Shown: positions 13,222 to 55,000 of the stretch, one piece after another
Position numbering within the stretch: the first letter of the stretch is position 1
Layout of the letters: each line of letters begins with the position of its first letter
Virus record (IMG/VR): IMGVR_UViG_3300027977_000006
Source: a virus
Lineage: Duplodnaviria > Heunggongvirae > Uroviricota > Caudoviricetes
Direction: 5' to 3' (one strand)
DNA: 64,000 nt
The notes under the pieces: generated by a model
Database searches by the model: none
Told to the model about the DNA's origin: nothing
Seen by the model: the letters and a program-made list of their open reading frames with translations, nothing else
Position numbers and translations under genes: made by a program

Positions 13222-13223
13222 AT

Positions 13224-14197: not shown

Positions 14198-14247
14198 AAC
14201 TTTAGTTTATTAAAGTTGTTATCTTTTATATAAATATCTCAAACACA

Positions 14248-14649
14248 TTAAAAAATCCTCTGAATCTTGAAAATGCCTAGCTCTTGGCCGTTTAATAAAA
14301 TAATCCTATCTTGATATTCTGACCAATCAATCTTATATGATTTATAGTCAATGTTTCCTATATCGCTACCAACTTTTAAATCAATTAGTTTATTTAAAGC
14401 GTTTATAGTATACAAAGCATTTCCTTTCTTGTGAATAGGTACGGCATTTGGGAATAAGTCTTTTAAGTTTATTTTTTTATCTTTTTCAAATTTAAACTTA
14501 AATGTCATGATGACTTTTGATTCATCATCCAAGTTTTTATAACAAAAAACTTTGTCTTTGGTTATTGAAAATTTAGCTTCTAGATAACTAATAAACCAAT
14601 CAACTCTCTCTGGGAATATGAATGATGCTAGAAGAATCGTTTTGTCCAT
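14248..14649 (-). CDS. Hypothetical protein
   Basis: 133-aa ORF. Confidence 0.7.
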   Translation of the reverse strand: MDKTILLASFIFPERVDWFISYLEAKFSITKDKVFCYKNLDDESKVIMTFKFKFEKDKKINLKDLFPNAVPIHKKGNALYTINALNKLIDLKVGSDIGNIDYKSYKIDWSEYQDRIILLNGQELGIFKIQRIF

Positions 14650-21691: not shown

Positions 21692-24600
21692 TTAATACCA
21701 TTCTTGGAATTTATCACCAACATCTGGAACTTTAACAGCAGCTGGCGCAACTAATTGACCGTTGTAGAACACTTTTAACATATAATTACCTCTAATTAAG
21801 GTACCAGAAGTAATTGTTCCATTGTCTACTTTATCACCCATAAAATATTGTGAACTGAATAATGCAAATGCATTCTTACCATCACCTCTATCATAATTGG
21901 CCGATGTTATAATATCTTCAACTCTACTAGTAGTTGTTGGGTTTGGAACAACATCTAATGTTATTCTAATACCCTTATCTAAAAATGCTTTAAATTCATC
22001 TTCGCTTATCAATAATGTTTGTGTATTTCCAGAATTTTGGAAAATACCTTCTTGTTTTAACCCTACTTGTATAGTAAATTGTTGAAGGTCTCCAAATTGT
22101 TCAATTTTTACATAAGATATACCTGTAATTTTTGGTTCTGTTGTCCCTGTGCTAGGTGGTGCCTGTGGTGCTGTTTTAGCAGCTGCGTTAAGTTCTTCAT
22201 CACAAGCTTCAGTTTGATTTATTTCTGGTTCAATTTGTTTTTCAGATATAACAGTGGTTGTTCTGAACTTATTTATGTTCAAAGTACCATTAACTATCTC
22301 GTATGCTCTATTTGTACTTACTTGAACTGTATCTAACGTATTAGTACTAGCATCACCAGTATTTTCTAATCTTGCAACTGTTGTAGGTGCAGGTTCAGAT
22401 TTTTTAATATAATCAGCTCTTGGGTCGTAAACATGTGTATTCGCATAGTAATTAAACGACAACGCATTCTGCAATTTATTTATTGGGCCTAATAGCGATG
22501 AACCACCAACAATTTTAAGAGATAATGTTACATTTGCAATCATTGGTTGAACACCTATACCTTCTGGATTTAAATCCCAAACAAGTGGTTCATAATCAAT
22601 TGATAAATTATCTATTATTACTTTTGTATGGAAGAAGTCACCAATTCTAAGAATACAAATTGGTGCTCTACCAAAAGCTAAATTATCTGTGTCAAAGTTT
22701 TCAGTTGTTGGGCCTTGTCTAGTACATTGTTGTAAGAATGTTAACCTAGAATTTAACCCTTCTGGTGTCATAGAGTGAAAGGCTGGGTGAAAATATCTAA
22801 TTCTTTCTCTAAATGAATCAAAGACAAAGTTATCAGTTTGTTTTAATTTTTCAAAATACATAGCTTCATTATAGAACCTATTAGTTATTTTTGAATTTAC
22901 ATCAAAGTTTTGTTTTTTAACAACTGGTGTTGGTTTTACTGTTTCTTCAGTGGCCAATGTACTATCAAATTCAATTAATACTTCAGCTCTTCTGTCTTCT
23001 TTACATTGTTTTTGGTCTGGTTTTCCATCTTTAACACAACCAGTATTTGCACCTAATGGTTTGCTAGTTATTGTGGCAACCAATCTATTATCTTGATTGG
23101 TTATACCCATAGCTTTCAAATAGTCATATATTGATTTTCCTCTACCTTGTGCTAATTTTTCGTTAGAAACTTTATCACCTTGAACACTGGCAAATGCAGA
23201 TATCTTTATTTTACAGTATTTGCACTTGCTATCCATATAGGCTTTTAAAGCAGGTAAGAAATTAGGGTCTGATAAACCACTGTAAGATGGGCCATCAATT
23301 TTTATTGGAGTTTTATTTAACCCATAATTATAACCATCATAATATATTGTAAATGGAGCATTAGGTATTGGATTTCCATTGTTGTCTTTTGGTGGTGTAA
23401 CTTGTCCTTGAACATTACCTATACCAAATCCTTCTCCTGGTTCTTGTACTGGTGTGGTACCAACACTACTATTACCGTTATTGAAATCATTATTCAATCC
23501 ATTTTCGTAACCAAGAAGAATTATGTCATCCAAAGTTATTACATCATTAGGAAAGTAAACATCAAATTTAATATCTGGTGGTCGTGGTGTTGCCAAAACT
23601 TGTTGTTGTGGTTCTTGTATTTCTTTTTCGACAATTGAACTTATTTCAGAAACAGTAAGTCTTTCAGCAAATCTATTATTAGGTTCAACACAACCAGCAA
23701 CAAATGAAGCAACATAATTATCTTGTGGTCCTAATGCACCTCTAAATGAATTCATATAACTTGAATGGTCGACAATTATACTAAAAGACAAACTAGCTGA
23801 CCTTTCTGTGTTGTTATATGTATAAACTGGTTCACCTCTACCTATAAAATTTGTTGATTCCCAATTAACAGAAGAGGATTCATTAAATTGAATATTATAA
23901 GGTGGAAACCACATTATTCTGCCTTTGCTTCCAGTAATTAAATCACCTCTTCCAGCTTCCACAGGTGGTAAGTTAGGTAGAAAACCTTGCCAAGCTAAAT
24001 TTTCAATAGATAGCATATAGTTTTTTGGGTCAGATACACTAGTTAAGTTTCCTTCACTATCATAATCAGTATATTTGTCATCAACATATGGTGCGACTTT
24101 AACAAACCCATTATCATCCAATGTTGAATTTAGTGTTTGAAACCTGAAATAATTTTCACCAAATAATTTTGATGTGTCATTAAGACCAGAATTTCTAACC
24201 ATTTTTGATACTTGGTCGTATCTATCTAAAGTAGTCCAACTTCTACAATATGTGTCTTTGGCTTCCGCTCCTTTGTCAACGTATCCAATATCATTGTATA
24301 GACTACCAGCTAAAACAGCACTACCTTTAGATATACCATCAGCATTTGCTGTTGTTATTTGTGATGATGTATAACCCATTTCACCTTTAACAGTGACTAT
24401 ATTTTTCATACCTTTACTGTTAAAAAGTTTTTGTGTTTTAACGAGCAAAGATTTTCTATCACCAATAAGTGGTTCATAATCAGGACTTTTATTAACAGCT
24501 AAACCATCTCCTCCAAATGAACCCCAAGAAAAATTAACATCATTTATTCTTCTATCTGTATATCTACCTATATTTGTATGACCTACAGAAGCTTGTTCTT

Positions 24601-25945
24601 CTGGCGCTTTGAACCCATACTCGCTAATCATTTCGCTTCTGTTATAACTTATTTCAGGTATAACATTGTTTGGGTCTGGTATTGCAAAAGGATATATTGT
24701 CCCTTTATCAGCATCATAAAAAGCATATAAATTTGGGTTTATTGCTTTTCTACCTCTATTGTCCTCATATCCTGGAACATAACCACTTCTAAATGGTGTT
24801 GTTGATGGGTTATCATTTTCAGTTGTGCCAATTAAATTAGCATTTACGTTAGCTATCAAAGCTTTAACTTGTCCTTTACCAGTATTTAATATCATTGAGT
24901 TTGCTCGCTCAATATTACCAGAATTGCTTTCTGATAAAAATATTGAACCAGCCTCATTCAAATAACTAACAGGAACTTGAAACCCTAATACTCTTGATGT
25001 ATAATCAGCTATACGACCACCTAAACTTCTTGGAACCGTAATCGTATAATTTGGCCTAAACCCAGATAAATTACCAGTCTTAACTAAACTTAATATATTT
25101 TCTTCAACATTCAAAGCGCCAAGCAAATCTTCTTGTAAATTAAATGCAGCATTATTTGCCAAAGCTAATGCTAATTGTTGACCTCCAATCAATCCTAATT
25201 TTGTGTCATTGATTAGACCAGTGGCACCAAGCACTCTACCAACCAATGAAGACCTTACATCGTAGTTGGTTACTATACCGCCTTTAGCTAACCCTAAGCC
25301 ATTACCATCCAATATACTACCTATTATATTGGCAGCTTGTACCCCAGCATTTCCGCCACCATTTAACCCACCAAATACATCCAAATAGCTATCTAATTGT
25401 TGTGAGAATCCAGCTGGCTGTAATGAAATAAAATCAGCCATGTCAATTTGTTTGGCTGTATCAACATATAAATTAAATAAAGTTGCGTCTTTTCTAAATT
25501 CAGCATAAGCTGTTTTACCAAATAAACCATATTGTGCAACTTCTTGATTTGCTGATGTTGGGTATGATTGAATACCTTGCGGAAATTCAATATTACCAAA
25601 CACACCTTGAGTCTTTTGTATGTATTCAATATCAAACAAAGAAGGTGATGTTGGGTCATCATCTTTAAATTGATTTGGAAGAATTGCTATTCCATATCTT
25701 AATAAACCTTCTGTTTCAAGTGGAAGACCAAATGGTATTACGTTTGAGTTTCCATTTATACTTGTTTCTAATACAGGTTCACCAATTCTAGGACCACCAT
25801 TTATTGATGTTGATAGAAACGGATATTGTGGTAATAAATTTTTGTTTAATAAAAAGTCTCTATACCCAAGACCAGTTGCAGTATTGGTAATACTGTTTTT
25901 AGTACTTGGTGATGGTGATGACGTGTTATAAAAAGGAAATGGCAT
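21692..25945 (-). CDS. Large baseplate/tube-initiator (gp48/gp54-like) protein with an inserted OmpA-like domain
   Basis: F.E....NW....FIGRGEPVYTYNNTERS..LSF; AP.C.LRIGD......I..L...Y; OmpA-like YFPND...SAFAS....N..LA..R......YL...DRRAEV. Confidence 0.65.
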   Translation of the reverse strand: MPFPFYNTSSPSPSTKNSITNTATGLGYRDFLLNKNLLPQYPFLSTSINGGPRIGEPVLETSINGNSNVIPFGLPLETEGLLRYGIAILPNQFKDDDPTSPSLFDIEYIQKTQGVFGNIEFPQGIQSYPTSANQEVAQYGLFGKTAYAEFRKDATLFNLYVDTAKQIDMADFISLQPAGFSQQLDSYLDVFGGLNGGGNAGVQAANIIGSILDGNGLGLAKGGIVTNYDVRSSLVGRVLGATGLINDTKLGLIGGQQLALALANNAAFNLQEDLLGALNVEENILSLVKTGNLSGFRPNYTITVPRSLGGRIADYTSRVLGFQVPVSYLNEAGSIFLSESNSGNIERANSMILNTGKGQVKALIANVNANLIGTTENDNPSTTPFRSGYVPGYEDNRGRKAINPNLYAFYDADKGTIYPFAIPDPNNVIPEISYNRSEMISEYGFKAPEEQASVGHTNIGRYTDRRINDVNFSWGSFGGDGLAVNKSPDYEPLIGDRKSLLVKTQKLFNSKGMKNIVTVKGEMGYTSSQITTANADGISKGSAVLAGSLYNDIGYVDKGAEAKDTYCRSWTTLDRYDQVSKMVRNSGLNDTSKLFGENYFRFQTLNSTLDDNGFVKVAPYVDDKYTDYDSEGNLTSVSDPKNYMLSIENLAWQGFLPNLPPVEAGRGDLITGSKGRIMWFPPYNIQFNESSSVNWESTNFIGRGEPVYTYNNTERSASLSFSIIVDHSSYMNSFRGALGPQDNYVASFVAGCVEPNNRFAERLTVSEISSIVEKEIQEPQQQVLATPRPPDIKFDVYFPNDVITLDDIILLGYENGLNNDFNNGNSSVGTTPVQEPGEGFGIGNVQGQVTPPKDNNGNPIPNAPFTIYYDGYNYGLNKTPIKIDGPSYSGLSDPNFLPALKAYMDSKCKYCKIKISAFASVQGDKVSNEKLAQGRGKSIYDYLKAMGITNQDNRLVATITSKPLGANTGCVKDGKPDQKQCKEDRRAEVLIEFDSTLATEETVKPTPVVKKQNFDVNSKITNRFYNEAMYFEKLKQTDNFVFDSFRERIRYFHPAFHSMTPEGLNSRLTFLQQCTRQGPTTENFDTDNLAFGRAPICILRIGDFFHTKVIIDNLSIDYEPLVWDLNPEGIGVQPMIANVTLSLKIVGGSSLLGPINKLQNALSFNYYANTHVYDPRADYIKKSEPAPTTVARLENTGDASTNTLDTVQVSTNRAYEIVNGTLNINKFRTTTVISEKQIEPEINQTEACDEELNAAAKTAPQAPPSTGTTEPKITGISYVKIEQFGDLQQFTIQVGLKQEGIFQNSGNTQTLLISEDEFKAFLDKGIRITLDVVPNPTTTSRVEDIITSANYDRGDGKNAFALFSSQYFMGDKVDNGTITSGTLIRGNYMLKVFYNGQLVAPAAVKVPDVGDKFQEWY

Positions 25946-26212: not shown

Positions 26213-28678
26213 TTAACCCTTTTGAACTTGATTTTTCATTTTAGCAGCCTCAACGTGTATCATCCTAGTTATTTCCCTAACAAATTCTGGGTTTTTGGCC
26301 AAATTCATATTGATTTTTTCGTTTCCAGGTGTCATTAATACAATTTCACCACTTATATTTAAGTCGCCAAATTCATGTTTAACAGTATTTACACCAGCAT
26401 TTTGTGACATTACTTTATCAACTATACCACCTGGTTTCATTGCAAGAATATCATCTTTATTATCAATTGGTGTGACATTTTTACCTTCTAATATAGCTCT
26501 TCTAGATTTACGTACAGATTTTTTAGTTCTGCTAAAAATCCCATCTTCAACACCATATGTGTCTAAATCAAATAACTTTCCACCACCAAAAGCACCTATT
26601 CCACCACCAATAAGAGCACCTAAAGGTACGGTAACTGGAGCCATTATACCACCAAAGGCACCGAGAGCAGCACCAGCTGAAGCACCAGCCAAAGCACCAC
26701 CAAAAGCACCAACACCTTTTAATCCAGCTCTACCTAATGCCGCACCAGTTGACTTTCCCTTTTCTTTTTGTTCACCAAACTCATCATATGCTGCAAAACC
26801 GCCAGCTGCAACACCACCTAATCTTGTAGCCATAGACCCAGAAGCGCCTTTAAAATTAGCACCAAATTTTTGCATATTTGTCATACCAGCTCTATTCATA
26901 GCGTTCATATTTCTGGTGCCCATTATACCACCAGTTCCACCTCCTTTACCAGCAACAGTATTAAAACCAGCGCCAAAAGATAAACCCATAGTATACCATT
27001 TAGCAGCTTCAAGCAAACCTAACCCACCAATAGCACCAAGAATAGCTGTTATTGGGTTTTCAGCGATAAATTTTCCTAAAGGTCCAATTAACCCTGCAAA
27101 TGTCTTTGCAGCATCTTGAATTCCTTTGATTACATTTTCATCACTTAAAACGAGTGCTAATTCTTTTGCTACTGGTCTAAATGCTTTATCAAAAGCCTCC
27201 AAGAAAGGTAATAAAAGTTGTTTCATTTGAGTAACCACATTTGAAAGGGTTTCATCAAATGTCTGTGCTTCTTGTGCTCTTTTTTGTAAACTAGCTTTTT
27301 CTTCCATAGCAGCTTTAATAGCCTCTTGGTCAGCATTGCTTAATTGTTTAACCAATTTTGGTCCACTTTCTAATTGTATTACAGCCTCCCCATCCTTCAT
27401 TGTAGCCGTATTTGCAATAAACTCTTTTGTCGCTGGGTCAAAGTCATATCTTATTTCCTTTTTAATCCCAACAGCTTGGGCTGCTGTTTTTGCAGCAGCG
27501 GCTAAAGTTTCAAATTCCAATCCAGCAGCTTCAGCAACTTTTCTAAGTCTTTGCATTTCCATTGCACCAATCTCAAACTTTCCAGTTTTATCGCTAAAAT
27601 CAGCTGAAGCAGCGGCAGCATTTATCACAGATTCCTCCAATGCATCAACATCGTTTCTGGCCATATACATAAGCTTAAATGGGTCGGCCAATTTAGACCA
27701 TTCACCACCCAAGACTTGTAATTGTGCTGACATATCAACAGCGCCTTCAATGTCAAACAACTTTTCAGCCATACCAGCTGTAAAACCCATATCAATTCCA
27801 AGCTTTGCAGCTCTTTCAGCCATTTTTGCCAAACCTTTAACACCATCTTTAAAGTTGTATTTGTTAAGCATTTTAATATTTTGCTGAATGTTCTTTACAA
27901 CCTTGCTTGAATTGATACCCATTCTAGACGTATCACTCACAACTTGTTTTATAAATTCACCAGTTCTTTCAGCTGAAATACCTTGTTTTTCAAAATCAGC
28001 AGCCATTCTTGCCGCACCTTCAGCACCAATACCAGTACCTCTACCAATAGCAGCAACTGATTCTAATGCTTGAGCACTAAGAAGAGCAGCTCTACCAAGC
28101 TCATCACTAAATGTGCCTTGAATCTCAGCTAATTCTTTTATATCGGCTCCAAATATTGTTGTTTGACCAACAGCTAATTGTAGATTTTTTCTAAACATAT
28201 CGCTTCTAGCACCAAGCAAACCCATGCTGGTAGAAGCTGTTCTTATAGATTTGTCAACTTCAAATAACCCACTCCAAGATTTAAATTTACTATAACCACC
28301 AGAAATTGTTGAATATATTGATTTAACATCTTTTGCTGCCACACCAATAGCTGACAAAGACTTTGCATACTTATTGGTTTCTTTGATTACCTTTACATAT
28401 GTTTTTTGAGTCTCAGTTAATACCTCTAATTGTTTTTGTAACAATTTAAGTTTCTCATCTTCTATGGCCCTTTGTTGAGGTGTAAGTGTTGTTGCTAATC
28501 TTGCGGTTACTTGTGCTATCTGTTGATTGACTGTATTTATATCTTCATTAAGATTTTTTAAGTCCTTCATTAACTTAACATACTCACCAGAAGATTCAGC
28601 AATCTTCTTTCTAAGTTCAGCTTCCCTTTCTAATTGTTCTAAGGCTAATTTAGCCGCTTCTTGTGGTGTTAGTGCCAT
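26213..28678 (-). CDS. Tail tape measure protein
   Basis: Long Ala/Gly-rich helical protein with GAxxGA hydrophobic C-terminal region, lying between chaperone and baseplate genes. Confidence 0.85.
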   Translation of the reverse strand: MALTPQEAAKLALEQLEREAELRKKIAESSGEYVKLMKDLKNLNEDINTVNQQIAQVTARLATTLTPQQRAIEDEKLKLLQKQLEVLTETQKTYVKVIKETNKYAKSLSAIGVAAKDVKSIYSTISGGYSKFKSWSGLFEVDKSIRTASTSMGLLGARSDMFRKNLQLAVGQTTIFGADIKELAEIQGTFSDELGRAALLSAQALESVAAIGRGTGIGAEGAARMAADFEKQGISAERTGEFIKQVVSDTSRMGINSSKVVKNIQQNIKMLNKYNFKDGVKGLAKMAERAAKLGIDMGFTAGMAEKLFDIEGAVDMSAQLQVLGGEWSKLADPFKLMYMARNDVDALEESVINAAAASADFSDKTGKFEIGAMEMQRLRKVAEAAGLEFETLAAAAKTAAQAVGIKKEIRYDFDPATKEFIANTATMKDGEAVIQLESGPKLVKQLSNADQEAIKAAMEEKASLQKRAQEAQTFDETLSNVVTQMKQLLLPFLEAFDKAFRPVAKELALVLSDENVIKGIQDAAKTFAGLIGPLGKFIAENPITAILGAIGGLGLLEAAKWYTMGLSFGAGFNTVAGKGGGTGGIMGTRNMNAMNRAGMTNMQKFGANFKGASGSMATRLGGVAAGGFAAYDEFGEQKEKGKSTGAALGRAGLKGVGAFGGALAGASAGAALGAFGGIMAPVTVPLGALIGGGIGAFGGGKLFDLDTYGVEDGIFSRTKKSVRKSRRAILEGKNVTPIDNKDDILAMKPGGIVDKVMSQNAGVNTVKHEFGDLNISGEIVLMTPGNEKINMNLAKNPEFVREITRMIHVEAAKMKNQVQKG

Positions 28679-29730
28679 TACTTATTATTTTCTTGTTCTT
28701 TATCAAAACCACTACCTTTGACATCTTTAATATCAATCACAGCGTTATATTTTTTCTCTTCACCATTGTCATATTTTTTTATAAACAAAACATTGAAAGG
28801 GTGTTGAGTTCTTTCTTTAGTGTTTTTTGACCTGATTATTATAGAAATACCAGCTTTTTTGTCCTCTAATGTTAACTTTTCATCGTCAAAACTTATGGGT
28901 AAAACTTTGGCTGTGTAATCAATATTATTTTTAAATTCTATTTGTGGATTACCAGCTTTTACGGAATCAAAAACAATTGATTGCGGTGATAAAATTTTAT
29001 AGGTCAATTCTTTATTAAATACAAAACTATCAAAATCAGACCCAATTTCGTTTTTAATTCTACTTCGTCTGAAATCAGAAACAATATTAGCAGCTGAAAC
29101 AAGACCAGTACCTCTAGGTTTTTCACCCTTAACAATTGCAACTAAATAGTTCCATAATGAAGGTTGTTTATAAAAAGCTGTTTTCATTGTTGGGTCGTTA
29201 ACTATTGAATCGTATAAAGCTTTTGGGTCGATTGAACTCACCTCATCTTGAGCTTCAGCATCTGGTTGTTTCTCTGGTTCTACCTCACCACATTTTGTTT
29301 TCTTTTCAGCTAAACTAGATGACTCAATACTTACAATATTATTAAAAAAAGATTTATTTTTTTCACCTTTATCATTTAATGAATCAAACACCAAAGTAAA
29401 TGCGTCATCTCTTTTTTCAGAAGGTTTTATTGTATTTGGATTTAAATTATATTTACCTATTGGGTTTTTATCGTTTTTGTTACCAATCTTTAATGTAAGC
29501 TGAAGAGTATCCCATTTACATAGCGCCTTTTTATCATCCAAAAGAATTTCAAAATCAAATTTTGGTTCAGCCGCTTTAATACATCTTAAGACAATTTTGG
29601 TACCACTCATTAGAGTAAATTCAATTGATTTGTTTTTACCTAACAAACCAAATAACTCTACAAGCCTTTCACCAAGCTTTGTTTTAACATTTTCGTCAAT
29701 CTTGACAGCCTCTGATATAATTTTATTCAT
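28678..29730 (-). CDS. Hypothetical (likely virion) protein
   Basis: 350 aa, coupled to the tape measure start, preceded by TATTTAT. Confidence 0.7.
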   Translation of the reverse strand: MNKIISEAVKIDENVKTKLGERLVELFGLLGKNKSIEFTLMSGTKIVLRCIKAAEPKFDFEILLDDKKALCKWDTLQLTLKIGNKNDKNPIGKYNLNPNTIKPSEKRDDAFTLVFDSLNDKGEKNKSFFNNIVSIESSSLAEKKTKCGEVEPEKQPDAEAQDEVSSIDPKALYDSIVNDPTMKTAFYKQPSLWNYLVAIVKGEKPRGTGLVSAANIVSDFRRSRIKNEIGSDFDSFVFNKELTYKILSPQSIVFDSVKAGNPQIEFKNNIDYTAKVLPISFDDEKLTLEDKKAGISIIIRSKNTKERTQHPFNVLFIKKYDNGEEKKYNAVIDIKDVKGSGFDKEQENNK

Positions 29731-32470: not shown

Positions 32471-32959
32471 TCAAAACAAGAGTATAGCTCTGTCAAAACG
32501 CAATGTTGCGGTAATCTCAGCTATACCATCATCATCCATTGATAAGTCACCGAAGCCAACGTTGGTTAACATTGTTCCGTCCAATAACCATTTCTCAACC
32601 ACAACACCAGTCGGGTCAAGCAATTCAAGTTCAACTGGACGCTTGTAACCAGCCGCATAACCTTGACGACCTGTGATAGATTCAGAATGAAGACGTACCC
32701 ATTCCATTATTGCTTGTGAAGCAGAAGGACCAATTGGGTCACGGAAAGTAACATCAATAGCTTCCCATGTAAAACGTCCAATAACCCATGTTGAAGTGTT
32801 AAGGAACGGAATTTCAACCTCATTTTGAGTAATTGATGGTCTGGAAGCAGATGCTAGCCACCATTGTTGAATACCCAAGTCTGCTGGGAAAGTAATAAGC
32901 CAACGATTCTTTTTCTTAGGTTCGTAAGGCAAAGGCATTTTCATTAGTAAATCAGCCAT
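32471..32959 (-). CDS. Tail tube protein, gp19-like
   Basis: EPK..NR, RPS......IPF.N.....G...W..I.VT..D, LDPTG.VVE.W.L, L.FD. Confidence 0.9.
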   Translation of the reverse strand: MADLLMKMPLPYEPKKKNRWLITFPADLGIQQWWLASASRPSITQNEVEIPFLNTSTWVIGRFTWEAIDVTFRDPIGPSASQAIMEWVRLHSESITGRQGYAAGYKRPVELELLDPTGVVVEKWLLDGTMLTNVGFGDLSMDDDGIAEITATLRFDRAILLF

Positions 32960-33104
32960 GTTCTATTTGTTTTAAAAGTTTTTTATTTATTAATAAATAT
33001 ACCGATAATTATTTTTTTCAAATAATATCTCGGTTTACTAATAAATATGTTGTTTTTAAAAAATAAACTTTACATTACGCAATTTTTTTTTAGTATATTA
33101 AAAT

Positions 33105-33395: not shown

Positions 33396-33400
33396 AATAT

Positions 33401-33431
33401 TTGGTGTAATCAAATATTTTTACTACCTTTG
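33401..33431 (+). promoter_or_regulatory. Host-type promoter
   Basis: TTGGTG-N17-TACCTTTG. Confidence 0.65.
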
Positions 33432-33443
33432 TGTAGTAAATAA

Positions 33444-33998
33444 ATGATAATGAAAAGATTATTGTTAATTATCTGCACGATATCAAGTCTATTGTCCTAT
33501 GGTCAAGACTATGAAATGCTTAATTTTATAAACATTTATAGGGTAAAAAATGGTTGTGAATCGGTAATCTACTCTGAAGATTTAGAAAAAATAGCAAAAA
33601 CACAAAATACTTTAAACACTATATCAGATAGCATTGCTCATTCACATAAGGCCAGCGAGATTGCCTTAAAAGGAAACTCTTCACCAGCGACAAAAATTAG
33701 TAGAGATGTTTTTACTAATTTTTTACAAAAGTACTTTAAATTAGATTACAAAGAACCGAAAACAGAAATTGAAGCACTAACATTAACAAAGCTATACTCA
33801 ATTTATCTGTTCAGCACTTCAAAAAACCATAATAATATTCTATTAGGCGAATACAAATATGTTGGTTTTGACTTCGTAGCCAACAATATTAAACTCAAAT
33901 CAAATGTGGTTAAAATAGGTGACAAAGAGTATAAACTAAATAACGTTATATCTCATCACAATGTTAATTTTTACGTTGTAATTAACTTTAAAAAGTAA
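33444..33998 (+). CDS. Secreted CAP/SCP-domain-like protein
   Basis: Signal peptide MKRLLLIICTISSLLSYG|Q; IN.YR...G......L...A, HS, S..H..ILL...Y.YVG. Confidence 0.65.
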   Translation: MIMKRLLLIICTISSLLSYGQDYEMLNFINIYRVKNGCESVIYSEDLEKIAKTQNTLNTISDSIAHSHKASEIALKGNSSPATKISRDVFTNFLQKYFKLDYKEPKTEIEALTLTKLYSIYLFSTSKNHNNILLGEYKYVGFDFVANNIKLKSNVVKIGDKEYKLNNVISHHNVNFYVVINFKK

Positions 33999-35109
33999 AA
34001 CAATTTGCGGAACCTCTTTTAGATTTATTACCACTACACTTTAACTTTATCTTTTTAAATGTTTTGGTAGTTTTTTTATAGGTGCTATTGTCAGCGTCAA
34101 TAACTTTAACCAAATCAAACCTATATTTTTTAACGATTTCTTCTGGTTTTATTATTTCTACAACTTCTTGAGAAAATTCAACAGTAAGTGATACTTTAAC
34201 ATATCTAAATTCAGCTGTCTTTTGTCTTAGCGCTTCAAGCTCAGCTTTATTATTTCTGGCGTTCATAAAATTTCTTGCACTAACAACATCAGAACCATTA
34301 TTAGGTATTTCTCTATGATTTATTTTAACATCACCATTCATTTTATTAATTAAATCAATCATAACGTTGGTCCTCAACTCGGCCAACTTTACGTTACCAG
34401 TTTTGTCGTATTCGGTTTTGTATTTAGGAATTACTTCAGCATCAGTGGAAGATTCAATAACAGCTGAGACAACCTTACCACCTTTTAACTTAATAATGTT
34501 TATAACATCTTCCCAAGCTTTAACACCAGTTTGACTTAACATATAATCGCCAGTAACAAATAAATTATCATTATTCAATTCTATATCTATTGTATCAACT
34601 ATAGTTACTATCTTTTTTTGTTCAACACCTTTTATTGTATCTGTTGAAACATCAGCTTTTTTTAATGCGTATCCTTTTTTAAGTTCACCACTTAAACTTA
34701 CCAAATTGTCAACAACTTTTTGACTAACTCTATATGTCATATCTTTGTCTTTAGCCAATTCATTAAATTTGTTAACAATTTTTTCAGCGTTTTTAGCCAA
34801 TAAAGAATCTGGGTTGCTAATACCTTTTTCGGCAAAGGCTTGAGACAATTCTTTTGTTTTTTGTTCGTCTTCCAAGGTTGATTTTATTTGGGCCATTGTT
34901 TCTGCATTTTGTAGTGCATTTTGAGCACTAGCTTTATTTAAACCAGTCAAACCAACACCCATAAGCATAGCAACACCTAACAAAACTTCTTTGAACCCTT
35001 CTTCCAAGATTTCTTTAGGTTGTTCATCAATTAAACGATTTGTTTGTTCATTTAAAAGAATAGCCTCATATTGCTTATGTGTTATTTTTAACCTTTTCAT
35101 TTTAGCCAA
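33988..35109 (-). CDS. Putative virion protein with an internal signal-like segment and an OmpA-like domain
   Basis: LF.TG.Y.L....SSTD......N..LA..R......R.V; hydrophobic aa 42-57. Confidence 0.6.
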   Translation of the reverse strand: MAKMKRLKITHKQYEAILLNEQTNRLIDEQPKEILEEGFKEVLLGVAMLMGVGLTGLNKASAQNALQNAETMAQIKSTLEDEQKTKELSQAFAEKGISNPDSLLAKNAEKIVNKFNELAKDKDMTYRVSQKVVDNLVSLSGELKKGYALKKADVSTDTIKGVEQKKIVTIVDTIDIELNNDNLFVTGDYMLSQTGVKAWEDVINIIKLKGGKVVSAVIESSTDAEVIPKYKTEYDKTGNVKLAELRTNVMIDLINKMNGDVKINHREIPNNGSDVVSARNFMNARNNKAELEALRQKTAEFRYVKVSLTVEFSQEVVEIIKPEEIVKKYRFDLVKVIDADNSTYKKTTKTFKKIKLKCSGNKSKRGSANCFTF

Positions 35110-37459
35110 ACATGATTTTTTTAATTCTCTTTAATTCTTCAGCAATCAATGGGTTTTGCATTTCATCAACTTGTGTCTCACCACCAGCCTGTTGTGGTGC
35201 TTGTTTAGGTTTTGCACTAGCTGCTTGTTGTTTTTGTTTATGCAAATATTGGAATAAAGACATGGCAACACCTAAGAAATTACTTAAATTCTTTTTAAAT
35301 GTTGTTTTGCTTTGAGCATCCTTCATAAATGACTTGTTAGGTTCAGAAGCATTGTAACCAGCCTCTTCTTCTAATTTGTTTATATTTCCACCACCCAATG
35401 TAGCCATTTTATCAATCATATTACCACCCTTGTAACTACCAGAATAAACTGTTGATAATATTTCTTTCATCATTCCAGCTAACATGTTTACTTCTTGTGG
35501 ATTATCAACATTAACACTAAATAACTTGCTAAAATCAGTTAACATAATAGGATTGCTATCTAATTGTTTTAAGAAACCTAATATAACTTTATCATCGGTT
35601 TTACCTTTTAGTTTTTTAACTAGATTTCTAATATACTCCACTCTGTTTATCAAGTCTTCAAAATTTTTAACTTTTTCAAAAGCCATTGATTTATTCAAAT
35701 ACTGTAAAAGTCGTTTGTCTTTTATATATTTACCCTCACTTACCATATCTGAATCAAATTCCCTAACATAGTTTTTATTAGCAAAAAATCTTTCTCTTCC
35801 ACTTTGTGTTTCACCACCAGTTGCGGCTCTACGGCCACCCTTCATAAATTGTCCAGAGTCATATGTCCTATCACCTCTATTTCCAGCCCCAGATTTACTC
35901 ACCACATCTGTACCTAGCGTATTTCTATTATTAACAACAAACTTAAATAAATTCTTAAGACTGTTGTATAAATTATCTTGAACATTCCCACCACTAGCAG
36001 CACCACCTCCAGTTTCTCCACCTTTAGTTTCTTTATTCTTGCTATCAATTGCTTTAGGGTCTTGAGCCGTGGGTATGTCAACAACTTCACCTTTTGGTTT
36101 TACAACACCAACACCACCTTCAATGTTTCTAATAGATTGATACAAAGCATTAAGTGTTGCTGCTCTTGATGATTTTTGACCCTTCATTCTCATAAGTTTT
36201 ACAAGTGCACCAGCAGCAATCAAACCAATTCCAATAGGACCTAACGCAGCACCCAAACCTTTTGCCACCGCATAACCAGCACCAACTTTTACACCAGTTT
36301 TCATAACAACCTTTGGAACCATTTGAACAATTGTATTAACAACCATTCCTTTTAATCCACCGCCAGTTTGTGTTACCAAAAGGTCACCAACTTGTTTTCC
36401 AGTTCCATCCAATTCACCTTGAAACATTTGTCCCAAGTTATTGCCATATGCACTTGGGTTTTGTGCGATTGCTTCTAAAGCTTGTTTTGCACCTTCAGGA
36501 TTTACAAATATACCGCCATCAGCACTTAAAGCATCAATACCAGCTTGCAAATCACCACCTCCCAATTGTTTAACACCGTCTAAGAAATCTTGTGGTGATG
36601 AATTTGGGTTTAAATTCAATCCGTTTAATCTATTCATTATTTGTGTCATACCTTCTCCAGGTTTTATTGACGCAAACACATCTGATTTCTTTTCAACCAA
36701 TTCTTTAATATATTCAATTGAAGGGTTTTGAGTTATTTCTTCAAATAAACTTCTAAACCAATCAGTATTAACCAACCAACTAAGACCACCTAACGCTGAA
36801 CCAACACCAGCTAATGTTAATGGTAATCTATTAGATTTAAGTGTATCCATTCTAGTACTAGCAAAATCTTCACCGCTATCACCCCTTTTTGCTTGTAATT
36901 GTTGTCTAACGTCACTAGCTTCAACTTCATCTAATTGTTCAACCTCTTCTTCATTAACTGTTGAATAAACAGCAGCCAAATCTACATCTAAAAATTTTTT
37001 AACATATTCTCTTAAATCGTTTATTACGCCATTAGCCGCATCTACAGGAAGATAACCTTCTTCATTTGGATTCTTATTTGTTGATGCAACAACAGAGTCA
37101 TAAACAGCAGCAATGCTCATTACAGTTGATAAAAACTGTTCTGGTTCCTTATTGTTTGGAAACTCTGGGTTCTCTTGTCTAATGGTATCATCTAATTGCT
37201 TGATAACCGCATTACCTTGCTTATCAATTATTTGTTGTATTTTTCTAGCGGCTTCTTGGTCAACTTTTCCTTTGCCAAATATTTTACCACCAGCTTTATA
37301 TCTTCCAAGTTTTGATAAACCATATTTTACGGTATCCATCAAACCTTCATTTACATTACCATTAGACTCAATGTTATTTATTTTATCTAATGTTTCTTTA
37401 AGAATTTGACTAACAATAACAGCATGTTGTTGTTCAGTTAAGATTAATTTCTTTGACAT
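35102..37459 (-). CDS. Putative internal head/ejection protein with hydrophobic segments
   Basis: 785 aa; KKLILTEQQ leader, two Gly/Ala hydrophobic stretches, terminal LIAEELKRIKKIM; preceded by TATTTATA. Confidence 0.55.
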   Translation of the reverse strand: MSKKLILTEQQHAVIVSQILKETLDKINNIESNGNVNEGLMDTVKYGLSKLGRYKAGGKIFGKGKVDQEAARKIQQIIDKQGNAVIKQLDDTIRQENPEFPNNKEPEQFLSTVMSIAAVYDSVVASTNKNPNEEGYLPVDAANGVINDLREYVKKFLDVDLAAVYSTVNEEEVEQLDEVEASDVRQQLQAKRGDSGEDFASTRMDTLKSNRLPLTLAGVGSALGGLSWLVNTDWFRSLFEEITQNPSIEYIKELVEKKSDVFASIKPGEGMTQIMNRLNGLNLNPNSSPQDFLDGVKQLGGGDLQAGIDALSADGGIFVNPEGAKQALEAIAQNPSAYGNNLGQMFQGELDGTGKQVGDLLVTQTGGGLKGMVVNTIVQMVPKVVMKTGVKVGAGYAVAKGLGAALGPIGIGLIAAGALVKLMRMKGQKSSRAATLNALYQSIRNIEGGVGVVKPKGEVVDIPTAQDPKAIDSKNKETKGGETGGGAASGGNVQDNLYNSLKNLFKFVVNNRNTLGTDVVSKSGAGNRGDRTYDSGQFMKGGRRAATGGETQSGRERFFANKNYVREFDSDMVSEGKYIKDKRLLQYLNKSMAFEKVKNFEDLINRVEYIRNLVKKLKGKTDDKVILGFLKQLDSNPIMLTDFSKLFSVNVDNPQEVNMLAGMMKEILSTVYSGSYKGGNMIDKMATLGGGNINKLEEEAGYNASEPNKSFMKDAQSKTTFKKNLSNFLGVAMSLFQYLHKQKQQAASAKPKQAPQQAGGETQVDEMQNPLIAEELKRIKKIMFG

Positions 37460-37491
37460 GATTTTTTTTATTATAAATATCAGCTTAAAAC

Positions 37492-37520
37492 AAAAAAAAA
37501 CCCCTAAATTAGGGGTTTTT
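37492..37520 (-). terminator. Intrinsic terminator after the sheath gene
   Basis: AAAAACCCCTAA-A-TTAGGGGTTTTT. Confidence 0.85.
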
Positions 37521-37538: not shown

Positions 37539-40388
37539 TTATATGTTATCGAATGATGCACCAGTGTTCATGATTACGAACTCAATTTGAATGAACTCAA
37601 GACTTCTTGTTGGTTTTAAGAAGATTTGACCAGTCAATTGATTTCTGTCGATATCCTCTGGGTCATTTGATAGAACCACACGGAAGTCAGTCAAACCTCT
37701 TTCAGCTCTAATGTTATCCAATATTGGGTTAACAAGTGACAAGAATTGGTTTCTTACAACCGAATCATTTTGTTCGAATAGAAGTCTGATAGAAACAGCA
37801 GAGATAAGTTTTCTAGCTTGCAACAACAATCTTCTAACGTTGATTCTGTTAAGAGCAGTTTCTTTAACTTGAAGAGTTTTGTTACCCCAAATTTTGATAC
37901 CATCAGAAGTGAAAGTAGCGATTGGGTTAATTCTGTTCTCATAAAGAGTATCTCTTTCAGACAATGTAAGTTTTTTACGAGCTTGGATTGCGTCAACATC
38001 ACCTCTTTGAATACCAGCAACTGCGAACCAAGGGAATGCAATGTTGTCAGTCAAAGCGATGTTTCTTACAACGTCTCTTGTAGGTGGAACCCACATCAAC
38101 ACATTGTTTTCAGCGTCATTGATTTGAACCCATGGCCAGTATGTACAAGAATAGTTGCTATCGTATAATCCATCCATGTTATCAACAACTTCGTCAGCAG
38201 TCAATATAGAACCATCGTAGTAATCTGGTGTTGTTAAGATATACAATGAGTCAGCTCTTTCTGTTTCAATCATTTCGATTGTTTCTTCAACCAAATTTGT
38301 GTTATCGAATGCATCAATACCTGGTGTTGCGAATACGTTTACGTTTACAGCTTCTGGGTTTCTGAATGTCCAGATACCTTCAAGATAAGCATAGTAATCA
38401 GAGTTGATACCCAAATCACCATTTGTAAGTGTTCTGTTTTGGAATGCACCACTAGTTAAACCAGCAGCGCCATAAAGTCCATTGATTGTAAATCCATCAC
38501 CATTGCTTCTTCTTGTTCTGTAAACATCCCATCCATCGAAACCACCATAAGGAGCCATAGTAAATTTACGTGCAAATATTTTTTCATAAGGACCACCAGC
38601 TAAACCAGCTTCAGTTCTAAACTCAGCATCACCAGTATCAAACAAGAACACAGGGCTGTAAGTACCACCAGTAGCGTTTATGACAACGAAAACATTATCA
38701 ATTGTAACAGCAGTAGCATCAATATCCATGTGGAAACCATTTGTTAAACCAGTCCACATGTCTGGGCTAGATGTTGTTGGAACACCTTTGTAATCAAAGA
38801 AGTCAGCATCAATACCTACAGTTTCTGACAAACCTAAGTAGACTTTACGTTTGTTTTCAAACGCACTATAAGCTGTCTTATACATGATATCTGGGTTAAC
38901 AATGCTTGTATTGCCGTTTGATTGGTAATTACGAATAGGGAAACCAATGAAACCAGCTGGGAATGCATCGCTAGTATCTGAAGTGTCATCAAGTTCTACA
39001 AGAACATATGAAGACCTAGACACATATTCACCATCCAAAGAACCAATTCTTCTAGCGATATAGTTTGCTGAAGTTGGGTCCATTGTACAACGAGTAAATG
39101 TCTCAAGAATTACAGGTGAAGCATCAGTATCATAGAAACCTCTGATTCTAACATCAAACTCTTTTGTATCTGGTTTAATGTTTGTGATAGAAATTTTAAA
39201 TTGTTCGTTTGCTGCGTTACCATCAGAAATAGTCCAGAATCTGAACAATCTTAATACTTTATTACCACGAATCTCTGATACAACATATGGTGTAACAGCT
39301 GGGCTGAATTCACGCAAATAATCATTGAATGTATTGCTATAGTTCGTAACACTTTGTTTAACACCTCTAATCTTACCATCAGCATTAAGTGTTTTGAACA
39401 TATTAGAGAAAAATTCTTCAACGTAAAGAGCGGTATTACCATCTTGAGCCGTTCTGCCCAATACTCTTGGTAGATAATTTGTTTGTGTTCTATCCAAAGA
39501 TACTTGGTAACCAAATAAACCTTGAGTTGTTGAATCACCACTCAAAGAAAATACGCCAAGTGGGTTGGTTGTTGCAGCAGAAAATGCTGGGTCAAACAAA
39601 ACACCAGTTGCTCCAGTAATCTCGAAAGAAGGAACTTGAGTTGATACGTTTATAGATGCTCTAGAACGTAACAAAGCAACTAGTTGATTTTCTACATCAG
39701 AATAAGCACTACCAGAATAGTAAACTGTAACACCAGTTGTTGTACCAGTAACAGAAGTTGTCATACCAACACCAGTGTAACTTGTAGCATTAACATAAAG
39801 ACTAATTGATGAACCAGTAAATGTAGAACCTATTTTTGTAAAAGTAACACCTATATTTGAAGTAGTACCAGTACCAGCTGTTCCTAAAAATGATAAATTA
39901 GATGTCAAAAGACCTTGGTTAATCAAAGTCTGTACCAATGGGTCGGCAGACACCAAGTTGGTTATGGTTCCAGTAGATGTTGCTGAGAACCTAATAAGTG
40001 GTGAATAAGATGAACCACCACCAGTAGTACCAGAAGTTGCTTGGTCAAGAGCACCATCAAGAGTTATACCCCAAGCTAAACCAGCATCGTAACCAGAAAA
40101 ACCTAATACTCTTGTAACAAATAATTGGTTTGATTGTGATAAATATGATTTAGCGATATAAGGTAGTTCATATAATGGAGCTCCAGTGTCTTTTACCTTG
40201 GTAGCATTTAATCCACCGAAGAAAGATTGAAATTCACCATAGTTACTGATGAAAATTGGTTGGAAAGCAGGCCCTATTGTTGTTTCACCAACCAAACCTA
40301 ACGTTGTTACACCAACTTGACGTGTGATGAAGGTTAGGTCTCTTTCTGATGTATAAACACCTGGACTTACGAATACTTGTGTTGCCAT
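37539..40388 (-). CDS. Tail sheath protein, gp18-like
   Basis: SPGVY..E.D, G....GP, YWPW, WFA.AG..RG, LY..RINPI, WG.KTL, RINVRRL, KPTRS.EFI. Confidence 0.96.
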   Translation of the reverse strand: MATQVFVSPGVYTSERDLTFITRQVGVTTLGLVGETTIGPAFQPIFISNYGEFQSFFGGLNATKVKDTGAPLYELPYIAKSYLSQSNQLFVTRVLGFSGYDAGLAWGITLDGALDQATSGTTGGGSSYSPLIRFSATSTGTITNLVSADPLVQTLINQGLLTSNLSFLGTAGTGTTSNIGVTFTKIGSTFTGSSISLYVNATSYTGVGMTTSVTGTTTGVTVYYSGSAYSDVENQLVALLRSRASINVSTQVPSFEITGATGVLFDPAFSAATTNPLGVFSLSGDSTTQGLFGYQVSLDRTQTNYLPRVLGRTAQDGNTALYVEEFFSNMFKTLNADGKIRGVKQSVTNYSNTFNDYLREFSPAVTPYVVSEIRGNKVLRLFRFWTISDGNAANEQFKISITNIKPDTKEFDVRIRGFYDTDASPVILETFTRCTMDPTSANYIARRIGSLDGEYVSRSSYVLVELDDTSDTSDAFPAGFIGFPIRNYQSNGNTSIVNPDIMYKTAYSAFENKRKVYLGLSETVGIDADFFDYKGVPTTSSPDMWTGLTNGFHMDIDATAVTIDNVFVVINATGGTYSPVFLFDTGDAEFRTEAGLAGGPYEKIFARKFTMAPYGGFDGWDVYRTRRSNGDGFTINGLYGAAGLTSGAFQNRTLTNGDLGINSDYYAYLEGIWTFRNPEAVNVNVFATPGIDAFDNTNLVEETIEMIETERADSLYILTTPDYYDGSILTADEVVDNMDGLYDSNYSCTYWPWVQINDAENNVLMWVPPTRDVVRNIALTDNIAFPWFAVAGIQRGDVDAIQARKKLTLSERDTLYENRINPIATFTSDGIKIWGNKTLQVKETALNRINVRRLLLQARKLISAVSIRLLFEQNDSVVRNQFLSLVNPILDNIRAERGLTDFRVVLSNDPEDIDRNQLTGQIFLKPTRSLEFIQIEFVIMNTGASFDNI

Positions 40389-52071: not shown

Positions 52072-55000
52072 TTAGAATGGCCACCCATCATCATCTACAA
52101 CATTTGCTTCTTTTGGTTGCTCAAAAACATAATCATCTGGAGCATCGCCAAAGGTATCATCAAACTCATCATCTAATTTAAGTTCCTCATCATCTCTACC
52201 TGTTTCAGAGTTCTCGTCTTCATTATCAGAATCTTCTTCATCATCTTCAGAATCTTTCGATTTTTTATTCGATTCATTAGATTGAACAACCGATTTAATC
52301 TCTAAAGCATATTCAGCTATTTTATCAACAACATTATCTTTTTTAGATTCGACTTCATCTATAACAATTGATTCAGTTTCACCGCTAAGAAATCTTTGCT
52401 CGATAATGTATTCTAACCATAATTCATAACGTTGTTCTTCATTTTCACAACCAGTAAGCTTATAAAATTTGTTTCTTTCAACAGCTTTTTTTTCGTATTT
52501 AAAAATATCATCAACGTGACACAATACCTCACCCCATTTTCTGGATGCTAGGTTTCCAGAACCATCACCTAACAAATCACATATAGCAAATACTTCTATT
52601 GGCAACACACCTTTTGTTATTACTTTGTTTAAATCAGCAACTTCTAACTTTTTGAAGATATTCTCTAGAGTATCTTTTTCGTGTTGAATACCTTCAGCTT
52701 TTGCAATTGCCAGTCTGTTATGATAATCTTTTCTTATTGATTCCCATTCTTCAACAGACATGTAGTTAGGTAGTTTATTAACCTTATCCCAGAATTTTAT
52801 TTCTTTGTCTTCCATTGTCATAAGTTCTTTATAAGAATCTTGGTCAGCTTCTTTAAATGGAATACCTGAAATCAACCCACATTCACCCTTTGTAAAGATT
52901 AATCTTTCTTGTAGTTTTTCAGTGACTACTTTGGTGGTTTTATCTTTATGTTTTACAATGTTTAAAAGAATTCTATCACGTATATCAGGGTTGAAACAAA
53001 CTAAAAGTGGTTTTACTTTTTTGTTAAAAGACTCCAAATACTTTTCTACATTGTACTCATCAGTGAATAAAAGAGAGTTTATTTCATCAATACGTGCTTG
53101 AATACTTTCTTGTGATTCTGGGTCTTCTTCAAGTTGAGTCAAAGCTTTATTAAGCATTTCAACTTCTTTAATCAATTCAAAATCACGGTCAACAATTTCT
53201 GGGTCAATTAACTTACAATTTAATTGGACGGTAATTTCAGATGTTGGCGCACTACCATGTTCAGCAATGTACTTTTCCATTTGCTTTTTGGTTAGCTTAG
53301 ACCTGTTTATTGTCTTTAAATCACCTTGTGTCTTTGAATTCCCTGTGTTTATGTAATATAACACATCACCCAAAGTAACATCCATTGCAGCCTTTAAAGC
53401 AAGTTCCATGTGCGCTTGTTTTGGCATTGGATTACCAGCTTTATTTTTCATTGTAGCCTTTTTCCTATATTCGGCCATTGTAGATTTTACCTTTGCTTTG
53501 GTTGCCATCTTAACCAAAGGAATCTGATAGTTATAAATTTTATCAACGTATTGGTAATAGTAATTTATAAATGAATAACCATCACCATCTAGCAACATAC
53601 GAATCGCCTTACTTAAAAAGTCTTCAATATACACTGACATTTTTTTGGATTTGATTGAGTTACCAACCAATTTTATTTTTCCATCAATGTCATTTGCGTA
53701 GTTCTTTCTAGCAAAGTTGATTGTAGCGTTGCAAACATCATCAATATCCAGACCCATACGACCTTCCATATAATTTTCATTAAATTCGGCCAATACAGCA
53801 TCCAACCCAACCAATTCTTTGCCAGCATCATCTTTTGTTTTCCAATGACTTCCATTTGCAACATATTTTATTTCATCTATGTTATCAGGAAAAGCAAAGT
53901 TGAAACCATCTGTATTATGAGCAATAACACCACCTATACCACATACAAAAGTCCCATCTTCTGTGGAAATATCATAAACATATTTGTTAACGTCATTATT
54001 TGTTATGGTTTCGTTTTTCCAAACTTCATCGGTTTTCATTTTTGTTTTATTGGTAAAAGAAGAGTTATTACGATTATGGTTTTTTAACTTAAAATTAATA
54101 AATTTTTGTTTATCTTTACGAGTCACAACTTTATAATCAATACCCAATTCTTTTAAAAGCAAAGAAATTCCAGCCATAGCAATTTGTGATTTCATACCAA
54201 TATCCGAACATGTGTCAATAGAATCTCCATATCCATCAGATGCAAAAACCCCTTCAATAAACGCTTTTTTAATATCTTCAGTTGCATTTAATATTATGTA
54301 TGGTATTTTTTTTTCTCTATATGACGTATAAAAATGTTCACAAAAATTTTTAGAAAAATCAACATTATGTACAACTAGATTATATACACCACTAGATTTA
54401 ATGTGGTCTTTAATCACCCCATTAATGGAAAATTCATTTTTAAGTATTGTTTGTAATTTTTTTAAAAAATCAATTCTTGTATTAGATATTTTCCAATCAC
54501 TTCTTTTCCCTTTATTTATATGGATTTCACCAGTTTTCTTAGATTTATATTTTTGTTTTCTACTAGAACATGTAGCTGAACCGTCACCTAAGAAAAAACC
54601 ATATAAAAAAGCTTGGTCACAATTTAAAGCTGTTTGAACATTATTCATAGGTATTTCATATGTGTCAATAACATCAAATCTTTTAAGTTCAGAAGGTTTA
54701 ACTTCTTTGCCATTTTGAAATAATGAATGGTCTTCCGTAACATTAACCAACCTATCTTTGGTAATTATTCTGTGTATTTTTTTATCTGTGCCATGTCTAT
54801 AAACGTATTTTATTTCTTTCCAACCATTTCGAGTCAAAACTTCAAATGGTTTTTCTTCAAAATCCCTATATTTTTCGATATCTAAAAATTTTGAATTTTC
54901 ATTAAATAAATCACATATTGGTAAGACATCAATGTAATTTTTTTGTGATTTATATCTAATATATACTGGTGTATCATATGTTACTGAATCACCCACTAGT

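Follow-up and report, generated by a model that had tools for sequence, protein, structure and literature searches.

How does a phage protein come to carry what looks like a complete signal peptide inside its sequence, behind an acidic leader that ends in a site of the kind cut by the T4 prohead protease? The question arises from a minus-strand open reading frame (ORF), 33988–35109, in a 64,000-nt stretch of viral DNA (IMG/VR record IMGVR_UViG_3300027977_000006; hereafter the window), which belongs to a T4-like phage of 32% G+C and in which the ORF lies between the tail sheath gene (37539–40388) and the tail tube gene (32471–32959). An original prediction, made from the letters of this DNA, had described a hydrophilic leader, a signal-peptide-like unit and an OmpA-like domain in that order, and had proposed that the protein avoids export in the cell that produces it, is packaged and trimmed in the capsid, is injected, and is exported only in the newly infected cell. 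We found the ORF as described. On the sequence evidence, a two-part presequence made of a removable targeting leader and a true signal peptide is the most economical account of its N-terminus, because of an invariant boundary between the parts, a masked charge, the distribution of protease-type sites, a fitting protease in relatives, the gene context and the timing of expression. The full route, from packaging through trimming and injection to re-export by Sec, is one that we favor tentatively, as a possibility short of an even chance.

The protein almost certainly begins at the ATG at 35100, because its homologues uniformly open M-x-K-[LI]-K-I-T, which matches this ATG, and because the stop codon of the upstream gene (35104–35102) ends one base before it. 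A TTG at 35109, which overlaps that stop, was ruled out as the start since homologues begin at the ATG, and an internal start just ahead of the hydrophobic core was ruled out since no Met is conserved there. With the ATG as start, the protein would be 370 aa long and its leader 34 aa. The leader of the original prediction thus stands, whereas its length of 37 aa and its count of three (I/L)xE sites do not: translation of 34921–35100 returns the predicted sequence minus its first three residues, and the leader holds four sites.

These four overlapping [LI]xE sites (LNE, IDE, ILE, and LEE) fall within residues 1–34, out of five in the whole protein. At least four such sites occur in just 0.34% of 37-aa segments drawn from the proteins of the 64,000-nt stretch. 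Leaders contain 6.8 [LI]xE sites per 100 aa, 2.3-fold over the composition-based expectation, and mature parts contain 0.9 per 100 aa, or 0.75 of expectation; for the proteins of the whole window the baseline is 1.19. Chance clustering of the sites was rejected on these statistics. The leader itself opens with an amphipathic motif, K-L-K-I-T-x-x-Q-Y-x-x-I-L-L-x-E, followed by a variable linker, and its length in the family ranges from 10 to ~165 aa, with some members carrying folded-looking N-terminal extensions of 150–165 aa. At one related locus (L048, 9941–11023) a leader motif of the form K-K-I-x-I-T-D-S-Q-L-K-x-x-I-E is tandemly duplicated ahead of the same boundary and core.

The end of the leader is its most constrained part. 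Alignment A1 shows no substitution at E18, E34, or G35, and the boundary L32-E33-E34|G35 is conserved family-wide: counted from the start of the hydrophobic core in 212 members, an aliphatic residue (L, I, or V) stands at –7 in 186, Glu at –5 in 185, Gly at –4 in 177, and Lys or Arg at –2 in 185, with a variable residue between the aliphatic and the Glu of the boundary. In a subfamily with only 26–30% identity to the window protein, just 13 columns are invariant; two of them are the boundary Glu and the Gln at +1 of the signal unit, and the others include OmpA motif residues and one C-terminal Cys. T4 gp21 cleaves after L/I-x-Glu, and a leader of 10 aa is enough for T4 internal proteins, and for foreign cargo, to enter the head and then the host (PMC9026906). 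An Asp in place of this Glu prevents processing in T4 but leaves targeting intact (PMC9026906). Residues 1–34 have the look of a propeptide that a T4 gp21-type protease could remove, and this part of the original prediction gains support from the computed conservation of the aliphatic-x-Glu|Gly boundary, with the exact length and site count corrected as above.

A protease of the required type was found in relatives of the window phage. Peptidase_S77, the family of T4 gp21, exceeded its threshold in records from two relatives (54% and 33% identical; 97.9 and 90.9 bits); one S77 gene of a relative lies at L046 9069–9791. In the major capsid proteins of these relatives, L-T-E|S and I-N-E|T place their Glu opposite Glu65 of T4 gp23, and the L-R-E|S of T4 gp24 shares an alignment column with the gp23 site. 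The gp21-type machinery presupposed by the original prediction thus has support from relatives, in an S77 protease and in a gp23 cut site kept in their capsid protein. In one record (G002, locus L046) two ORFs right after the major capsid gene (13188–13853 and 13890–14648) open M-K-x-L-I-K-x-L-L-[KR]-E; this start resembles the T4 gp24 propeptide, making the two ORFs candidates for classical capsid-targeted internal proteins. The large terminase (553–3603, 1016 aa) and portal (3918–7265, 1115 aa) of the same locus are unusually long, with apparent intein- or homing-endonuclease-like inserts.

Behind the boundary stands the signal-peptide-like unit that the original prediction had described, G35–A59 followed by Q60 (34998–34921). 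We searched for a signal-peptidase-I pattern defined as a small or aliphatic residue at –3, A, G, or S at –1 and Q at +1, placed 15–22 residues past the core start. It was present in 69 of 80 full-length representatives, compared with 18.8 on average and at most 28 in shuffled windows, which upholds a signal unit ending in AxA|Gln. Signal-peptidase-I substrates of Bacteroidota follow a Gln+1 rule (PMC5837995), and we take residues 35–59 to be a true substrate that obeys it. The core, with a median of 13.5 residues and a Gly/Ala/Ser/Thr fraction of 0.43, has a lower hydrophobicity than do classical signal peptides from these phages and, judged by its sequence, is too short for a stable membrane anchor.

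The surroundings of the core differ sharply before and after the predicted cut. The 15 residues that precede it have a mean net charge of –2.64, negative in 76 of the 80 representatives and positive in none, so that the uncut protein lacks the usual features of a Sec signal: the unit is internal, beginning at residue 35, and its n-region is not net positive. Cutting at the last aliphatic-x-Glu site leaves an n-region with a charge of +1 in 65 of 78. Because of the acidic, never-positive flank, the unit is predicted to be a poor export signal as long as the leader is attached. The masked signal of the original prediction is to this extent supported by computed charges, namely a flank that is never positive and a +1 n-region after the predicted cut.

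Export signals of the ordinary kind occur in the same phages, whose CAP-like proteins have plain N-terminal signal peptides. A search of ~1 Mb of related loci for other leader-(I/L)xE-signal proteins, a check that the original prediction had proposed, found the layout of leader, site, core, and A|Q only in the OmpA-like protein family. Two known types of phage membrane segment were considered and rejected. A SAR domain fits the Gly/Ala content, but the segment is not N-terminal, its flank is acidic and a signal-peptidase site follows it. An i-spanin would be expected to have a lipoprotein partner, and no signal-plus-Cys lipobox start was found among the listed neighbors; the domain after the linker is, moreover, OmpA-like.

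The mature part of the protein ends in a domain whose identity was not apparent from direct searches. Pfam did not detect the OmpA domain PF00691 on the window protein, Pfam and PHROGs gave no match to it at all, and a family profile had no match among PDB sequences at E≤1. In an AlphaFold model, residues 160–316 have a pLDDT of ~80–88, and their top Foldseek matches are all C-terminal domains of OmpA, MotB, TagL, or PorE (E 1.5e-5, probability 1.00, target TM 0.6–0.67). Of the 29 aligned members, eight match PF00691 with E<0.01, the best at 8.3e-6, and a distant member (L063) scores 38.2 bits against a cut-off of 27.2. Residues S218, T219, D220, N236, L239, and R243 are invariant in the 29 aligned sequences, and in a relative the S-T-D...N..L...R motif can be aligned with GHTD...NQKLSERRA, from an OmpA-family chain of known structure. 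The Foldseek matches, the Pfam matches in relatives and the invariant motif together establish the OmpA-type domain, upholding this element of the original prediction; by model and alignment, residues 160–316 have an OmpA_C-type fold, with putative peptidoglycan binding. C355 and C367 likely form a periplasmic disulfide, and an invariant Cys pair would suit an oxidizing compartment.

A stator of the MotB/PomB type was rejected, since the core has no Asp and is too short, the segment is predicted to be cleavable, and the neighboring 785-aa protein has no MotA match; the name 'MotB' that a source gives to some homologues reflects only their OmpA-like domain. Members of the family end in C-[FSAT]-T-F or similar (33991–34002, minus strand, in the window), which recalls the end signals of outer-membrane proteins and may be due to chance. 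Residues 912–958 of a 1417-aa tail or baseplate protein (21692–25945, minus strand) give a weak OmpA-family match of 18.9 bits, below the cut-off, and this segment aligns weakly with the N..L...R part of the OmpA-like domain encoded at 33988–35100.

We found 144 close homologues, on contigs of up to 368 kb that include complete ones of 350–368 kb, and a profile search returned 316 cluster representatives; all are metagenomic. Every lineage retains the arrangement of leader plus core, and none has swapped the leader for a plain N-terminal signal. With the whole arrangement kept in the 144 close homologues and the 316 representatives, its conservation is far beyond chance. There is also a large set of short paralogues (125–150 aa) that keep leader, core, and helical part, have neither the OmpA domain nor a CAP neighbor, and carry the Gln site in just five of 35.

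In some lineages the gene lies among head genes. At loci L032, L033, and L063 the order is protease, OmpA-like gene, CAP gene, scaffold, capsid protein, and at L063 the start of the OmpA-like gene overlaps the protease stop; at L050, L052, and L055 the OmpA-like/CAP pair lies between portal and protease. The head link drawn in the original prediction thus has a counterpart in three lineages, where the OmpA-like gene is inside the portal-protease-scaffold-capsid block. The CAP-domain gene is a fixed neighbor in tail-module and head-module settings alike, and PF00188 was detected in 10 of 12 neighbors tested (best E 3.9e-11).

In the window, the OmpA-like gene is the second of a two-gene operon, behind the gene for the 785-aa protein. 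The motif ATATTTAT[AT], read as a late-type promoter, stands ~20 nt ahead of the sheath, tube, hub, baseplate, and fiber genes of the window, and a host-type promoter (–33 TTTG, –7 TAnnTTTG) precedes the CAP-like gene, the DNA polymerase gene, an HNH endonuclease gene, and nrdA pieces. The two classes separate cleanly, with example sites at 37470–37481, 32960–33030, 33424–33431, and upstream of 52072–56847. A late motif on the OmpA-like operon and a host-type motif on the CAP gene form the same split in ~20 loci, and head-module loci show it too, with a terminator between the OmpA-like and CAP genes. Late production, as the original prediction supposed, is in keeping with this predicted late promoter, and the host-type promoter of the CAP gene is probably early. 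Genes of the late and host-type classes have stayed neighbors through module rearrangements, a pairing that fits, without proving, the idea that a protein made late does its work early in the next infection. The features of the locus are collected in Table 1.

Table 1. Features of the OmpA-like locus, with positions in the window and the basis of each assignment.
Feature	Position	Strand	Basis
Terminator-like hairpin and T-run, 3' of the tail sheath gene	37492–37520	–	Read from sequence; hairpin-then-promoter layout in ~20 related loci
Late-type promoter motif GATATTTATAAT of the two-gene operon	37470–37481	–	Motif ATATTTAT[AT] ahead of structural genes and homologous operons
785-aa protein, operon gene 1	35102–37459	–	ORF list; shared N-terminal motif, ~38-aa leader, two hydrophobic segments
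OmpA-like protein, 370 aa from ATG 35100	33988–35100	–	ORF, homologue alignment, checked translation
Predicted leader, residues 1–34	34999–35100	–	Amphipathic N-terminal motif, variable linker, L-E-E boundary before G35
Signal-peptide-like unit, residues 35–59 (G-F-K-E, Gly/Ala-rich core, c-region ending A-S-A)	34924–34998	–	Alignment, site statistics
Q60, predicted +1 residue	34921–34923	–	
Conserved helical linker domain, residues 61–145	34666–34920	–	AlphaFold helices 54–145, pLDDT 74–86; conserved alignment columns
OmpA_C-type domain, putatively peptidoglycan-binding, residues 160–316	34153–34623	–	Fold match, invariant motif, checked translation
C-terminal basic loop, invariant C355 to C367	34000–34038	–	Alignment; protein ends C-F-T-F
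Secreted CAP-domain protein, convergent neighbor	33444–33998	+	PF00188 in 10 of 12 neighbors; classical signal peptide at the N-terminus, cleaved at G|Q
Bacteroidota host-type promoter of the CAP-like gene: –33 TTTG (33400–33403), –7 TACCTTTG (33424–33431)	33400–33431	+	

The N-terminal motif of the leader is itself position-specific: among 967 ORFs, 64 have it within their first 25 residues, and the 187,207 internal positions give six matches. One of the other proteins that carry it is the 785-aa partner, whose leader of ~38 aa ends V-N-E|G or L-D-E|G and is not followed by a signal; Gly/Ala-rich hydrophobic segments lie at residues ~213–231 and ~395–430, the protein was found in a minority of related loci only, and Pfam, PHROG, and ESM Atlas searches gave no lead. 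A further family with the motif sits between the hub genes and a tape-measure-like gene and has a conserved central motif P-S-L-W-N ... G-T-G (alignment A5). In its window member (28678–29730, minus strand), four of the five [LI]xE sites fall within residues 1–40; a fold of this protein (pLDDT 59.5) shows a confident C-terminal beta-rich domain and has no PDB match. Another recurrent N-terminal motif, N-L-L-[AT]-E-Q-[RK]-Y-L-E-[SA]-K-G, is carried by small proteins that adjoin sheath or tube genes and start M-R-K-[FI]-D-K (L034 8936–9418, L039 11067–11594, and L029 4869–5168).

The route that we tentatively favor can be laid out in steps. The protein would be synthesized late and kept in the cytoplasm by its leader, whose acidic end would mask the signal. 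The leader would then direct it into the prohead, like the capsid targeting sequence of T4 internal proteins, and the prohead protease would cut the leader off, so that the new N-terminus would be G-[WF]-K-[ED] followed by the hydrophobic core. The trimmed protein would be ejected with the DNA into the next host. There, in the weakest of the steps, the now-terminal signal would lead it to Sec, and signal peptidase I would free a mature protein starting with Gln in the periplasm, where it might bind peptidoglycan, possibly together with the CAP-domain protein made from its host-type, probably early promoter. A more specific version holds that the leader silences the Sec signal, that the capsid protease unmasks it, and that Sec and signal peptidase I of the new host place the protein in the periplasm before any expression of phage genes, where it meets its early CAP partner; we consider it rather unlikely that all of this holds.

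Several points weigh against such a route. We know of no phage-injected protein that is re-exported by Sec, and no injected phage protein bearing a signal peptide came up in a search of the literature. Bacterial insertion machinery can use internal hydrophobic signals, and a leader of 34 aa need not block export. The evidence for the protease comes from relatives, the head module of the window phage itself lying outside the window. The family representatives are interrelated, so the counts made on them are not independent events, and the conserved leader motif itself yields many of the counted sites. The commonest gene order is not a head order, being sheath, OmpA-like gene, convergent CAP gene, and tube. 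The leader motif heads three families, namely the OmpA-like proteins, the 785-aa partner, and a family of 350–590 aa encoded next to the hub and tape-measure genes, and it did not appear among the head-module ORFs of G002 that were examined, two of which have a different N-terminal motif. Finally, cultured phages yielded no homologue when 50,697 of their records were searched by tblastn with the window protein and with two distant members.

Ordinary export in the producing cell would account for much of the same evidence, and we regard it as a serious alternative, only slightly less probable than the favored route. The hydrophobic unit would then be an internal or long-leader signal, the leader would stay in the cytoplasm as a regulatory or docking module, and signal peptidase I would free the OmpA-like domain into the periplasm of that cell for a late role, which together with the CAP protein may be superinfection exclusion, envelope stabilization, or lysis control. 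Export of this kind is the default for a hydrophobic segment ahead of a periplasmic-type domain and satisfies the signal-peptidase site and the Gln+1 rule equally well; the fixed CAP neighbor is classically secreted, which suggests a common periplasmic job, and the topology is like that of MotB or Pal, one source naming homologues MotB or OmpA-like. Several features weigh against it. A flank that averages –2.64 and is never net positive is contrary to the positive-inside rule for an N-in signal, the invariant aliphatic-x-Glu|Gly is given no obvious role, and the enrichment of [LI]xE in leaders with its depletion in mature parts also tells against ordinary export. No lineage has a plain signal instead of the leader, though the same phages use plain signals; extensions of 150–165 folded-looking residues would be severed from the mature part by signal peptidase; two unrelated proteins open with the same leader motif but have no signal after it; and the gene of the CAP partner is under a different promoter class.

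Delivery in the virion could also occur without re-export, an account that we judge improbable, in which the trimmed protein is freed directly into the periplasm as the contracted tail breaches the outer membrane. Its N-terminus may enter the inner membrane from outside and its OmpA-like domain may grip peptidoglycan, building or anchoring a conduit for DNA, perhaps with help from the 785-aa partner. All of the leader and protease evidence applies here as well, the partner is co-transcribed (stop and start one base apart) and has the same leader and two hydrophobic segments, the 1417-aa tail protein contributes a second weak OmpA-like segment, and the periplasm-spanning ejection proteins of podoviruses (T7 gp14–16; P22 gp7, gp16, and gp20) provide a precedent. 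However, the conserved signal-peptidase-I site, the Gln+1, and the signal-peptide spacing are hard to explain without Sec-type insertion, and the 785-aa partner is missing from most loci. The short paralogues without the OmpA domain speak against it too: they have also lost the A|Q site, which argues that cleavage is tied to release of the domain and not to membrane anchoring. Still less probable, in our view, is a cargo or assembly factor of the tail, with the N-terminal motif serving to load or dock proteins in the tail tube lumen or at the baseplate hub, like the N-terminal packing signals of contractile injection systems, and with the Glu-rich sites incidental to an amphipathic helix. Such a role agrees with the usual gene position between sheath and tube, with the two other leader-bearing families that adjoin sheath and hub/tape-measure genes, and with the absence of the motif from the G002 head-module ORFs examined. 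Position is weak evidence against head packaging, though, because T4 alt, which encodes a head-packaged protein, sits beside baseplate genes 54 and 48, and three lineages place the OmpA-like gene in the head module. A tail role also leaves the cut-site-like boundary, the masked charge pattern, and the signal-peptidase site unexplained, and the third leader-bearing family gave no tail-like fold.

The internal proteins known from T4-type phages do their work in the cytoplasm of the newly infected cell, where they may, for instance, counter restriction or act on RNA polymerase, and we know of none with a Sec signal peptide and a periplasmic domain behind its leader. The window protein resembles the T4 internal head proteins (IPI, IPII, IPIII, and Alt) in its short amphipathic leader ending in L/I-x-Glu, in the S77 protease (here in relatives), in its late gene, which lies mostly outside the core head operon as T4 alt does, and in its expected delivery with the DNA (PMC9026906). 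It differs from them in a leader of 34 aa (range 10–165) instead of 10, in showing no demonstrable sequence homology and in having a Sec-type signal peptide and periplasmic domain behind the leader, and its packaging is predicted. A bacterial parallel is the effector VgrG3 of the Vibrio cholerae type VI secretion system, reported to use an internal signal to pass from the cytoplasm of the target cell to its periplasm (Ho et al. 2017, via PMC9927483). Like the window protein, for which delivery is proposed, VgrG3 acts on the wall, enters its target cell by way of a contractile machine and has a signal-peptide-like element within its sequence; it is a bacterial weapon, however, and, as far as that account goes, has no proteolytic unmasking and no classical signal-peptidase-I site, with Sec dependence not established there.

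Proteins of the OmpA_C/MotB/Pal/TagL group (PF00691) share the fold and the TD...N..L...R motif and, in the case of MotB, a single hydrophobic segment before linker and domain. The window protein differs in falling below Pfam detection, in its short, Asp-free segment with a signal-peptidase site, in having no MotA-like partner, and in being phage-encoded, with an added helical domain and a C-terminal Cys loop. The extended signal peptide regions (ESPR) of autotransporters are ~25 aa long, basic or neutral, and function in the producing cell. These and other long n-region signals likewise place a conserved N-terminal extension ahead of an otherwise normal signal peptide, but the flank in the OmpA-like family is acidic, very variable in length, and ends in a protease-type site. 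A similar logic is found in organelles, where thylakoid-lumen and mitochondrial intermembrane-space proteins have bipartite presequences with tandem targeting signals. Removal of the first signal by one protease exposes a hydrophobic second one, which a signal-peptidase-I-type enzyme removes after the second membrane passage. There, both passages take place in one eukaryotic cell, whereas the proposal here involves the capsid in one cell and the Sec machinery of the next; the likeness is an analogy and not a homology.

The family belongs to hundreds of uncultured giant phages of Bacteroidota from lakes and other waters and carries no annotation. Even a conservative reading names a widespread gene pair, an OmpA-like protein and a secreted CAP-domain protein, and the cut-site-like boundary offers a handle for finding further processed virion proteins in these phages. 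Should ordinary export be correct, a signal peptide would be functional despite an acidic leader, 10 to 165 residues long, in front of it. If instead the route through the capsid is true, these phages would have a new trafficking route for their proteins, built on a tandem-signal logic so far known only from organelle import, by which pre-made cargo would reach the cell envelope and the phage would act there from the first moments of infection.

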